Assembly (NCBI RefSeq): GCF_003019035.1
Contig: NZ_CP027447.1
Source: Escherichia coli
GTDB taxonomy: Bacteria; Pseudomonadota; Gammaproteobacteria; Enterobacterales; Enterobacteriaceae
Length of the DNA stretch: 64,000 nt
Direction: 5' to 3' (one strand)
Shown here: positions 59,801 through 62,800 of the stretch, in pieces
Layout: each line of letters begins with the position of its first letter
Numbering within the stretch: the stretch's first letter is position 1
Position numbers: made by a program

Positions 59801-62800
59801 GAAGAGAAGGGGCTGGTGACGCCGCCGATGCGCAGCGAAAATGGTTATCGAACCTACACGCAGCAGCATCTCAACGAACTGACCTTACTGCGGCAGGCAC
59901 GCCAGGTGGGCTTTAACCTGGAAGAGAGCGGCGAGCTGGTGAATCTGTTTAACGATCCGCAGCGTCACAGTGCCGACGTCAAACGTCGTACGTTGGAGAA
60001 GGTAGCGGAGATCGAACGGCATATCGAAGAACTGCAATCCATGCGCAACCAGCTACTGGCGCTGGCGAATGCCTGCCCCGGTGATGACAGCGCCGACTGC
60101 CCGATTATCGAAAATCTCTCCGGCTGCTGTCATCATCGGGCGGGGTGAAAATCAGTTAATCCCCGTTTGCACCGAAAGAATATGCTGCAAACTTTCTACC
60201 ATAATGCGCCCCGACTGAAATAAGCCTTCCTGGATTTCGTTGTTAACATTCACAGCGTGAACCAGGGAGGCTAATAACACCACTTGCAAGAAGGCAAAAA
60301 TAAACGCACCGATAATCATAATATGCGTCAGGGGGATTTTCCTTTGCTCCTTCATTTTAAATAACCCACAAACTGACCTTCCTTCATTAAGGCGACTTTT
60401 CCCGTGTGGTGATAAACAATGACGTTATAAAGACCTGACTGATAAACAGTGGCATCTTTATTGTCTTCATCAATTGCACATAATGAATCATTGAGATAAG
60501 CAAAGTTCTTACTGCTCATTCTAAAGGTCATGCCAAATCCTTTATAAATGGCTTTCTTTGCCGCCTGGGCATGTTGTGCGGCTTCTGCATTTTTAAATGC
60601 CTGCGCCTCGGATGCACTTAAAATAGCCGTCTGACGCTGCTGTTCTGCGAGATAACAGGTGTCATGGCTGACGCCCTGCGCCTGGCAATCTGCGATGCGG
60701 GAAGTGGGTGAACTACAGCCAGCCAGTAATATAACCGCCAGCAGGGAAAACGATTTAATGGAGCTATTCATCATTGTTAACCTTAAATAATGTGCGGAAA
60801 ATTGCGAATAAGAAATTGCTGTTAAAATTAGAACGAATATCCCACGCCGACACCCGCACCGAAATCAGATTGTGTATCCGCAGAAATACCTGCTTTAAGT
60901 ACCGTATGCGTTCCGGCATTAAAAGATGTTCCTACAGACACCGCAGATTCACCGTTGAACGTTCCCGCTCCCGCTGACACCATCATCACGTCACCGGTTT
61001 TCACCTGTGGTTGTGAGGCGATAGCAATGGCAGATGCAGTTCCCGCATTGGCTTCTTTACGATTGTCCTCAACTTCGTTTTTCAGAGAATCGAAATGGTT
61101 ATTGAGCGTGTTAATTTGTTGGCTGTTATCTGCGACCCGTTTTTGCGTGTTGGTTAACTGTTGCTGCGTTTGTGCGGAATCTTGTCTCAGACTTTCAATT
61201 TGCTCATGTGCCTGGACAGACTTCTGCGCCAGACTTTGCATTTGTTTATCGTATTGAGCCCTTTCTTTTTGCTGTTGTGCTGCCACATCGGTTGTCAGTG
61301 CATTCATTTTCTGCCCTTGTTCCGTGGTAGTGCGCTGATTAGCCTCATTTTGAGCCGCCAGCCTGGCATTAATCATCTCCTGATAATGCGCGGTATTTTG
61401 CGTATCTCCAGTCGCGGCGAGCGTTTTTTGTGTGGCTACGATCTGCGCCTGTTGCTCTGTAATTTGCGTTTGCTGGGCGTCAGTTACCGCAGACTGTCGG
61501 GCGTTGATCATGCTCTGATAACGGGCGGTTGTCTGTACATCACCTGTAGCGGCAACGGTTTTTTGTCCTGCGTCAGGATCTGTCTGGACAGGGGGAGTCT
61601 GAGTGGTATCAGGTGTTTCAGAAGGGATGTAGTGATGTTCAGTCAAATAGGTATACGCAGCGGGGCTGTTGTCTGTGCGTTCTAAAAAGCGGGTAATCTT
61701 CTGCTCAATCTCCGATTGCGACATGCCGGAGTTAATGGCTGAAAGCTCTGTTGCCGCCGCTTCAATGGTATCACCAGCTAAAACAACAGGGCTGGATGTT
61801 GCTGAAATTATGAGTGCCAGTAAAGCTACGTTTACAGTTTTCATTCATTTTCTCTTGTTCAAAATAAGTCGCATTGATGTTTCTATAAGAAACAAATAAT
61901 ATTGCTTTAAGAAATAAACTGCGTTGCAATTTGATCGAAATCTACGCCGCCATTTGTGTGATGTAAAGCGCATTTTTGTCTTGTGTAAGCGTAAACACCA
62001 CCAATAAGAAACAAAAATAGTTTCTTATATAAATAAAAAAGGAAATTATTTCGTGCTCTTTCAATGTAAAAAAGAGTAAAGACTTGTTTTGATAAGCGAA
62101 ATAAATTCTGTTTCTGGACTAAACGTGAAGCGGTTCCTGATGTGTGCTAAAATGCGTTTCTTTGATAAATCTCAATTTTTAAGAGGTTTACGCCAGGCAG
62201 GAAATTTAAATGAATGAATTTGAGAAGATTTTTAATGAAATGAATCTGGACCGGGCATTGCTACCGATCCTTTTTCGTTCGAACCGGTCGACAGTGTGGA
62301 AGTATTTAAGCGGCGATAGTACGGCTCCTGCCTCTGCCATGTCGCTGATCATGCTGTTGCAGTTGATCCAGAAACGAAACCCCGATCTGTTAGCCGAATG
62401 GTTAACGCTTTCTGATTTCACCATTCCGCCAGAAGTTTACCTGGACCAACCTGATTACTGGAAAGGGTGGGTGTATACCCAACACAAGGTCAATAAAAAC
62501 GTCCTGGAATATCTAAAAAAACACTATCCGGATGAAGACCAAAAAAGTATGGGTAAAGGCCGGGAAGAGTAATTTTGCCTCTACTCGGCTATATGCCGGA
62601 TGCGGCGCAAGCGCCTTATCTGGCCTACGATTCGGGCATATTTTGTAGGCATGATAAGACGCGTCAGCGTCGCATCAGGCGATGACCGCACGGATGATCA
62701 GCGTTATCCCTTCTATCGCAATGACTTCAACATGCGTACCTGCACCGAGATCCTCGCTGGCGCTGACAGGCCATGAACTGTCGCCGACGCGCATATGACC

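Follow-up and report, generated by a model that had tools for sequence, protein, structure and literature searches.

The GmrA protein of Escherichia coli O-island 29 has the sequence of a trimeric autotransporter and is encoded next to a lipoprotein of an undescribed family

INTRODUCTION

In Escherichia coli K-12 MG1655 the genes cueR and ybbJ abut, with the cueR stop at position 514400 and the end of ybbJ at 514401. In the window analyzed here (a stretch of 64,000 nucleotides from E. coli contig NZ_CP027447.1, assembly GCF_003019035.1), the same two genes are separated by a variable block that is the equivalent of O-island 29 (OI-29) of O157:H7 and S-loop 43 of strain Sakai. One gene of this block was described in 2018 as gmrA, encoding a direct activator of fliA (PMC5826968). 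The locus therefore raises a simple question: how can a published transcription factor be encoded by a gene whose product reads as an exported outer-membrane protein, and what are the genes beside it?

An earlier note on this window had started from the cueR–ybbJ order of K-12 and had placed between these genes an inserted three-gene operon for a small YadA-anchor protein, a lipoprotein and a small membrane protein. This order is borne out by MG1655, and the three genes are indeed missing from this site in K-12: homology to the window ends at 60148, the cueR stop, and restarts at 62677 within the final ybbJ codons. The three open reading frames (ORFs) lie on the minus strand where the note had put them, but the unit consists of four genes, a divergent one at 62210–62572 having been overlooked. 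The note's structural reading of the three proteins was right and the island itself is ordinary. What the re-examination chiefly adds is that GmrA is, by sequence, an autotransporter and that the lipoprotein encoded downstream belongs to an undescribed family found recurrently after autotransporter genes.

RESULTS

The 338-aa protein has sequence features of a trimeric autotransporter

The features of the block are as follows.

60149–62676, no strand: variable block equivalent to OI-29, delimited by the homology break, G+C content and primers
60152–60355, minus: ORF for a 67-aa single-pass membrane protein, with an ATGA overlap with the lipoprotein stop
60352–60774, minus: ORF for a 140-aa lipoprotein (z0638), lipobox LLAGC with Ser at +2
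60828–61844, minus: ORF for the 338-aa YadA-anchor protein, supported by YadA_anchor, AtaA and Hia anchor matches and by primer flanks
60831–61010, minus: YadA-type membrane anchor, residues 279–338, ending ...GVGYSF (Pfam PF03895)
61296–61565, minus: two diverged ∼45-aa stalk repeats (QKTxAATGDxQxTAxYQxMINAR...), residues 94–183, from self-alignment
61626–61775, minus: ∼50-aa N-terminal passenger domain, residues 24–73, conserved among alleles
61776–61844, minus: signal peptide, residues 1–23 (MKTVNVALLALIISATSSPVVLA/GD), from inspection and homologue conservation
61845–62209, no strand: divergent intergenic region of 365 bp, ∼33% G+C, from composition
62210–62572, plus: ORF for a 120-aa protein (z0640) with a Cro/XRE-like helix–turn–helix (HTH) structure model
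62558–62714: repetitive extragenic palindromic (REP)-type repeats at the ybbJ-side junction, read in the sequence, with sub-threshold matches to the REP-derived naRNA4

The 338-aa protein ends in a complete YadA-type anchor; in type Vc proteins such an anchor supplies four strands of a 12-stranded barrel. Pfam YadA_anchor (PF03895) matches residues 279–338 over the whole model (positions 1–60 of 60, E = 2.6e-11), the last ∼95 residues align with the solved anchors of AtaA and Hia (E from 5.6e-7 to 4.5e-5), and the C-terminal residue is aromatic (...GYSF). By inspection, the N-terminus reads as a Sec signal peptide with a basic n-region, a 15-residue hydrophobic core and a VLA/G cleavage-type site, and an equivalent n-h-c region with an AxA-type end is kept in diverged homologues (e.g. 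...SPSAFA/GD). The earlier note had named both features, and both hold. It had also described the protein as having no head domain. Consistent with that, no Pfam head or stalk family, including YadA head and Hep_Hag, matches the protein, but the conserved ∼50-aa N-terminal domain had escaped notice. A head domain is frequent in this family without being a requirement. This domain has no Pfam match, is common to the Escherichia alleles (338–586 aa) and to a 633-aa Pseudocitrobacter protein, and is likely to be the fibre tip, its functional end. Because a conserved N-terminal cap is present, 'headless' is better read as 'no known head'.

The region between the N-terminal domain and the anchor is variable among homologues. 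The Escherichia proteins have in common the signal peptide, the N-terminal domain and the last ∼150 residues, with stalk modules gained or lost in between. The repeat is present in two copies in the 338-aa protein (local self-alignment score 115) and its copy number differs between alleles; no tandem repeat was found in the stalk at the DNA level. The Gln/Ala-rich region 94–265 gives weak matches of the coiled-coil type only (SMC, ATG16, CCDC93). The stalk is 20% Gln and 14% Ala, and the mature protein, rich in Gln, Ala and Thr, is acidic, with an isoelectric point (pI) of 4.86. Taken by its sequence, then, the protein reads as an exported outer-membrane fibre of the trimeric autotransporter class (type Vc).

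In some E. coli, such as TUM13936 (locus L013, 3724–4863), a markedly different passenger allele is found at this site; its 379-aa product bears the annotation 'YadA C-terminal domain-containing protein'. The genes for the lipoprotein and the 67-aa protein are nonetheless nearly identical, which suggests allele replacement or recombination limited to the passenger.

The autotransporter gene is the published gmrA

Primers published for OI-29 and its genes map to the window as follows.

60111–60148 and 62684–62722: OI-29 F and OI-29 R, 0 mismatches each, flanking the whole block
61845–61883: gmrA-02 R, 0 mismatches, directly upstream of the 338-aa ORF ATG
60790–60827: gmrA-03 F, 0 mismatches, directly past the 338-aa ORF stop
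60314–60351: z0638 F, 1 mismatch, just downstream of the lipoprotein ORF stop
62173–62210: z0640 F, 2 mismatches, flanking the 120-aa ORF

These positions identify GmrA (z0639) with the YadA-anchor protein, z0638 with the lipoprotein and z0640 with the 120-aa ORF. The proteins of O157:H7 strain SS17 are identical to those of the window at 324/338 (338-aa protein), 139/140 (lipoprotein), 66/67 (67-aa protein) and 119/120 (120-aa protein) residues. The same gene in Sakai, ECs0548, was catalogued in 2007 as a 'Saa-like protein' of S-loop 43 (PMC2323221). The island is thus already on record as OI-29 and S-loop 43, and its autotransporter gene has been published as gmrA.

The case that GmrA directly activates fliA transcription is as follows. 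Mutants without gmrA, or without the whole of OI-29, show reduced motility, fewer flagella and lower fliA, fliC and motA transcripts, with flhDC unchanged; gmrA alone complements; binding to the fliA promoter was reported from an electrophoretic mobility shift assay (EMSA) with competition and from a 7.75-fold enrichment in chromatin immunoprecipitation (ChIP)-qPCR; and there is epistasis with fliA (PMC5826968). The motility phenotype was the same in eight strains, and K-12 given gmrA gained motility (PMC5826968). Later reviews repeat GmrA as a horizontally acquired transcription factor of enterohaemorrhagic E. coli (EHEC). In the literature searched, we found no mention of its YadA anchor.

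Nevertheless, the gene that was deleted and cloned is the YadA-anchor ORF, and export of its product is predicted from the signal peptide at one end and the complete outer-membrane anchor at the other. No DNA-binding family matches the 338-aa protein significantly; the sole DNA-related match is to TMF_DNA_bd (E = 0.079), in the coiled-coil region at residues 203–252. The 'putative DNA-binding domain' of GmrA cited from CDD is presumably a match of this type. A transcription factor role fits poorly with a protein that is exported, acidic, barrel-anchored and free of any significant DNA-binding match. The constructs used for the binding assays also bear on this point. A terminal aromatic motif is normally read by the barrel-assembly machinery. 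The protein used for EMSA carried a 6xHis tag ahead of the intact signal peptide, and in the ChIP construct the terminal ...GYSF was followed by 3xFLAG. Because these tags mask both targeting signals, an unprocessed cytoplasmic precursor would be expected, so that the assays would have been made on a mislocalized protein. We therefore consider direct activation of fliA by GmrA, as published, to be improbable. The motility genetics of gmrA look reproducible and still need an explanation; the motility loss is more likely to come about indirectly, through an envelope effect that acts on the assembly of flagella or the activity of FlhDC/FliA, than through promoter binding.

The lipoprotein belongs to an undescribed family

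The lipoprotein gene lies 53 bp downstream of the autotransporter gene. As the earlier note had read it, the product carries a lipobox (LLAGC, with Ser next). Sequence searches of Pfam, NCBIfam and PDB gave no match, Pfam not even at E ≤ 10. A profile search of 1.84 billion representative sequences returned only 152 relatives, and a search of the AlphaFold database (AFDB) returned unnamed family members only. As far as sequence searches go, this is an unnamed and undescribed Enterobacterales family. In its alignment the lipidated Cys is invariant, the loop between Cys30 and Cys40 (CxAxGxSxDTCY) is conserved, and a helix rich in Ala and Gln carries invariant polar residues; the beta domain at the C-terminus is modeled as a small 8-stranded beta-barrel. 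Across the family, Ser or Thr, and never Asp, directly follows the lipidated Cys. Under the +2 rule, this residue governs lipoprotein sorting, and outer-membrane sorting is therefore predicted.

Several candidate relationships were rejected. Homology to SadB or TpgA has no sequence, profile or fold support. The similarities to TraV, Lpp and Rz-spanin (E from 0.001 to 0.03) fall far short of curated cut-offs, and the Rz-like match covers only residues 11–27, the lipobox. Large Cys-rich repeat proteins (874–1990 aa) also came up in the profile search; the one inspected, P0321, shares a short spurious motif.

Linkage of the lipoprotein to autotransporter genes

To compare loci across species, one genome per species was taken, giving 51 loci, 26 with the full-length lipoprotein and 25 with its N-terminal module only. 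Every ORF of these loci was searched with hidden Markov models and then by an iterative search, which picked up divergent anchors that Pfam does not recognize in L003 (second gene), L020 and L021. In 13 of the 26 full-length loci the lipoprotein gene is directly preceded by an autotransporter gene on its own strand, with representatives in Escherichia, Pseudocitrobacter, Enterobacter, Phytobacter, Rahnella, Yersinia aleksiciae, Ewingella and others, and in one more it lies 1.9 kb upstream. There is no autotransporter gene within 5 kb in 11, and one locus could not be assessed because of a contig end. When only the N-terminal module is present, an autotransporter accompanies it in 1 of 25 loci and is absent from 24. 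The linked passengers are very unlike one another (249–745 aa) while the lipoprotein is conserved. In keeping with a link, published RNA-seq data have z0638, gmrA and z0640 all expressed in DMEM culture medium and all at 0 reads per kilobase per million (RPKM) on HeLa cells. The linkage between lipoprotein and autotransporter is far beyond chance, but the loci that lack an autotransporter indicate that the lipoprotein is not an obligate partner.

These results bear on a second alternative, that the lipoprotein, perhaps with the 67-aa protein, has a function of its own unrelated to the fibre, such as a periplasmic inhibitor or immunity protein of the MliC/PliC kind, and owes its position to an old shared neighbourhood. 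The 11 full-length loci without an autotransporter would be explained in this way, as would the stand-alone copies in Klebsiella aerogenes, on Citrobacter plasmids and in Chimaeribacter, and Serratia silvae, which retains the HTH gene and the lipoprotein beside qmcA–ybbJ–cueR without an autotransporter. On the other hand, a same-strand autotransporter gene immediately upstream in half of the loci is far above chance for so rare a gene class, and the lipoprotein has no MliC/PliC lysozyme inhibitor match in Pfam even at E ≤ 10. We regard a separate function as possible but rather unlikely. Gene linkage makes a helper, anchor or signalling role possible for the lipoprotein and the 67-aa protein.

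Other arrangements were seen among the same loci. The N-terminal module, made up of lipobox, Cys loop and helix, by itself forms a protein of ∼75–115 aa (L039, L041–L048, L050–L059, L061, L062 and L064–L066) in Buttiauxella, Atlantibacter, Aeromonas, Pseudomonas and Alphaproteobacteria (Skermanella, Falsiroseomonas). Pseudocitrobacter faecalis (L003, 801–4532) has two tandem autotransporter genes ahead of the lipoprotein, the second of which (588 aa) has the divergent anchor, no precomputed Pfam match and no NCBIfam match; this module lies ∼1.5 kb from a serine recombinase gene and adjoins wrbA–yccJ. A stand-alone lipoprotein beta domain also lies beside wrbA–yccJ on Citrobacter plasmids (L008). 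In an Enterobacter species and two Phytobacter species, the lipoprotein is followed by a conserved ∼285–292-aa protein (MAHIFLEIKGIRPG...) with no family match (L020, 5071–5943; L021, 5923–6777; L035, 6500–7378). A record titled Chryseobacterium sp. 18061 (L026) has the gene layout of Enterobacter sp. JUb54 (L025) and similar match statistics; a lipoprotein of this enterobacterial family under a Bacteroidota name suggests that the assembly is contaminated or mislabelled.

The 67-aa membrane protein and the divergent, putative HTH gene

The third gene of the minus-strand unit starts inside the lipoprotein stop codon (ATGA) and encodes a protein with a basic N-terminus and one hydrophobic span (residues ∼12–32), in agreement with the translationally coupled, single-span protein of the earlier note. 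The 67-aa protein has no family match. In Rahnella, Serratia silvae and an Enterobacterales metagenome-assembled genome (L023, L027, L028, L032, L034), its position is taken by an unrelated conserved protein of 70–81 aa (MKKxHTDQFKHLxxEQQ...ATLSKF...) that has no signal peptide, membrane span or family match.

On the plus strand, the 120-aa protein is modeled with five helices in residues 1–67 (pLDDT, the per-residue model confidence, of 78–88 for residues 1–60). The leading Foldseek PDB matches of the model are all HTH proteins of the Cro/XRE type (HigA2, probability 0.97; MqsA; P2 C; C.Esp1396I), although the matches are weak (E ≥ 0.27), as is the Pfam match to MqsA_antitoxin (E = 0.12). A homologue is encoded divergently at loci with the trimeric autotransporter and lipoprotein in six genera. 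This is the credible candidate for a DNA-binding protein in the island and is likely to be a local regulator. The intergenic region it faces, 61845–62209, contains one sigma-70-like site, on the minus strand at 61967–61939, and presumably serves as promoter and operator for both transcription units.

The block may have been lost from K-12 rather than gained elsewhere

Within the block, G+C is 0.33–0.48, compared with 0.53–0.62 beyond it. Of 5426 complete E. coli genomes, 1416 carry it, nearly always as a single copy, and each of its 1421 occurrences is chromosomal; carriers include O157:H7, strains of the ST95 or extraintestinal pathogenic (ExPEC) type and avian strains. Its four genes are all intact and highly conserved. 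Thousands of spurious multi-copy matches in a genome search came from the REP elements and flanking core genes, not from the operon. An Rfam scan of the block gave nothing except the sub-threshold naRNA4 matches at the junction. A role in anti-phage defence was considered and rejected, PADLOC giving coiled-coil noise for the 338-aa protein and nothing for the other three.

E. marmotae, E. whittamii and a cryptic Escherichia clade carry this block too, likewise between cueR and ybbJ. A related module lies beside qmcA–ybbJ–cueR in Pseudocitrobacter, on the other side of qmcA–ybbJ, and Serratia silvae has its HTH and lipoprotein genes at this neighbourhood. The C-terminus of YbbJ ends ...LIIRAVIA in island-bearing strains, ...LVIRAIIR in Serratia and ...LHIRAVSS in K-12, the island-bearing form being nearer to that of Serratia (window 62675–62700 compared with L002 6402–6430), which hints that the K-12 cueR–ybbJ junction is the derived state. 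Four independent gains of OI-29 were proposed in 2018 (PMC5826968). The shared site, the related modules and the YbbJ ends point to an old resident that the K-12 lineage has lost rather than to four independent gains, and loss is at least as likely as gain. The earlier statement that the genes were 'inserted' between cueR and ybbJ is thus correct as to their absence from K-12 and doubtful as to insertion.

It is very unlikely that the block was left behind by a prophage or other mobile element, in the manner of lysogenic-conversion 'morons' such as the Eib genes, and lacks a coherent function in the cell. Its low G+C is in keeping with such an origin, as are the match of stalk and anchor to the phage 'adhesin/tail' PHROG family phrog_17426 (E = 6.9e-22), the YadA-anchor proteins found in 64 phage records and the one Pseudocitrobacter copy near a serine recombinase. 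However, the site lacks phage genes, an integrase, a tRNA and flanking direct repeats; a search of 50,697 phage records for the lipoprotein was negative even at E ≤ 1; every copy of the block is chromosomal; and the block, whose four genes are intact and highly conserved, is found at one and the same site in several Escherichia species.

The surroundings of cueR

cueR is flanked by variable DNA on both sides, as the earlier note had it, with the block downstream and a complete type I secretion locus upstream.

34171–59744: type I secretion locus, complete
34171–35526: TolC-like gene
35629–56406: intact ORF of 6925 aa
56410–58572: ABC exporter
58569–59744: HlyD-type adaptor, whose stop overlaps the cueR start (ATGA)

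The type I substrate gene has been described as frameshifted in enteroaggregative E. coli (EAEC) 042 (PMC2808357). K-12 retains ∼95 bp of the 3′ end of the HlyD-type adaptor ahead of cueR (homology from 59646), which looks like a deletion scar. At the other end of cueR, the 3′ part of the gene contains a 15-nt inverted repeat (60077–60140) whose arms are 93% complementary and separated by 34 nt. cueR and the 67-aa gene converge, with only 3 bp between their stops. This repeat might be a shared terminator; the same DNA encodes the Cys-rich tail of CueR.

DISCUSSION

We somewhat favor a reading of the block as a four-gene cell-envelope module, composed of a surface fibre, envelope partners inherited with it and a local regulator. 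In this model, the 338-aa protein would be exported by Sec, trimerize and insert a 12-stranded YadA-type barrel in the outer membrane, displaying a short, acidic, Gln/Ala-rich coiled-coil fibre with a small conserved N-terminal cap. For the lipoprotein, a place on the periplasmic side of the outer membrane is predicted, and for the 67-aa protein a cytoplasmic N-terminus, one inner-membrane span and a 35-residue periplasmic tail. Together they would most likely act from the periplasm to stabilize or anchor the fibre or to help display it, in a role akin to that of TpgA or SadB but performed by unrelated proteins, and the divergent HTH protein would act as the local regulator.

Several observations weigh against this model. 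Deletion of OI-29 left adherence to HeLa and Caco-2 cells unchanged, and deletion of z0638 or z0640 had no motility phenotype (PMC5826968). The published EMSA and ChIP results point to DNA binding by GmrA. Many lipoprotein loci, including nearly all of those with the N-terminal module only, have no autotransporter gene. The helix of the lipoprotein model is of low confidence, and homologues of the 67-aa protein were detected only in Escherichia and Pseudocitrobacter modules, in the same position, with a different small protein downstream of the lipoprotein in other genera.

A more ambitious version would have the four proteins form a relay across the envelope, from fibre through lipoprotein and 67-aa protein to the HTH protein, reporting surface contact or the state of the fibre to gene expression. 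We hold this to be decidedly improbable. If true, it would reconcile the reproducible 'gmrA' motility phenotype with an extracellular protein, and the lipoprotein family would be a third, unrelated class of partner, missed by the 2026 global survey of autotransporters, which covered head-bearing proteins only (10.64898/2026.01.22.700529).

The envelope-module reading matters in several ways. A transcription factor listed in reviews of EHEC has the sequence of an exported outer-membrane fibre, and if the published assignment is wrong, the route from OI-29 to motility needs to be re-examined. Only two kinds of dedicated partner have been described for trimeric autotransporters, SadB and TpgA, and the lipoprotein family is a candidate for a third. 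The block is present in about a quarter of complete E. coli genomes, and a surface product of this distribution could matter for typing, vaccines and interaction with the host.

Short, stalk-dominated trimeric autotransporters include Saa, the Eib proteins and DsrA. The 338-aa protein resembles them in its short, coiled-coil-dominated passenger with a YadA anchor, the phage 'adhesin' PHROG spanning both stalk and anchor, but differs in having no YadA head, Hep_Hag or stalk motif family match. The structures of EibD stalk constructs, which we take to be PDB entries 2XQH and 2XZR, are absent from the PDB sequence matches of the 338-aa protein at E ≤ 0.01. Compared with OI-29 of O157:H7 EDL933 (z0638, z0639 = gmrA, z0640), the block has the same genes at the same cueR–ybbJ locus, in a strain that is not O157 (100% identical to SCU-301 and 99.7% to SMS-3-5). 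The OI-29 paper counted three genes, left the 67-aa gene unmentioned and assigned z0639 as a transcription factor, whereas the present analysis adds the 67-aa gene and reads z0639 as an autotransporter.

Of the two described partner systems, the SadB-type arrangement was the one suggested by the earlier note. In Salmonella, SadA is displayed better with the help of SadB, a lipoprotein that forms trimers in the inner membrane (PMC3953254). In both systems an enterobacterial trimeric autotransporter gene adjoins one for a small lipoprotein, whose N-terminal part is a helix and whose C-terminal part is a beta domain, and in both cases the two genes are missing from K-12. SadB, however, combines a trimeric coiled coil with an Ig/MATH-like beta-sandwich, resides in the inner membrane and is encoded upstream. 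The z0638 lipoprotein has no sequence match to it, is modeled as a barrel rather than the SadB/YajI beta-sandwich, is predicted in the other membrane and is encoded downstream, so the suggestion does not hold.

The arrangement is closer in gene order to AtaA–TpgA of Acinetobacter, where the taa–tpgA cassette also has the autotransporter first and the partner second (PMC12523085). TpgA is not a lipoprotein and has SmpA/OmlA-like and OmpA_C-like peptidoglycan-binding domains, whereas z0638 matches neither domain and has a lipobox, and its family is linked to autotransporters in ∼50% of cases compared with 91% reported for TpgA cluster I. What the two systems share is a partner gene directly downstream in one operon, recurring across species with varied passengers.

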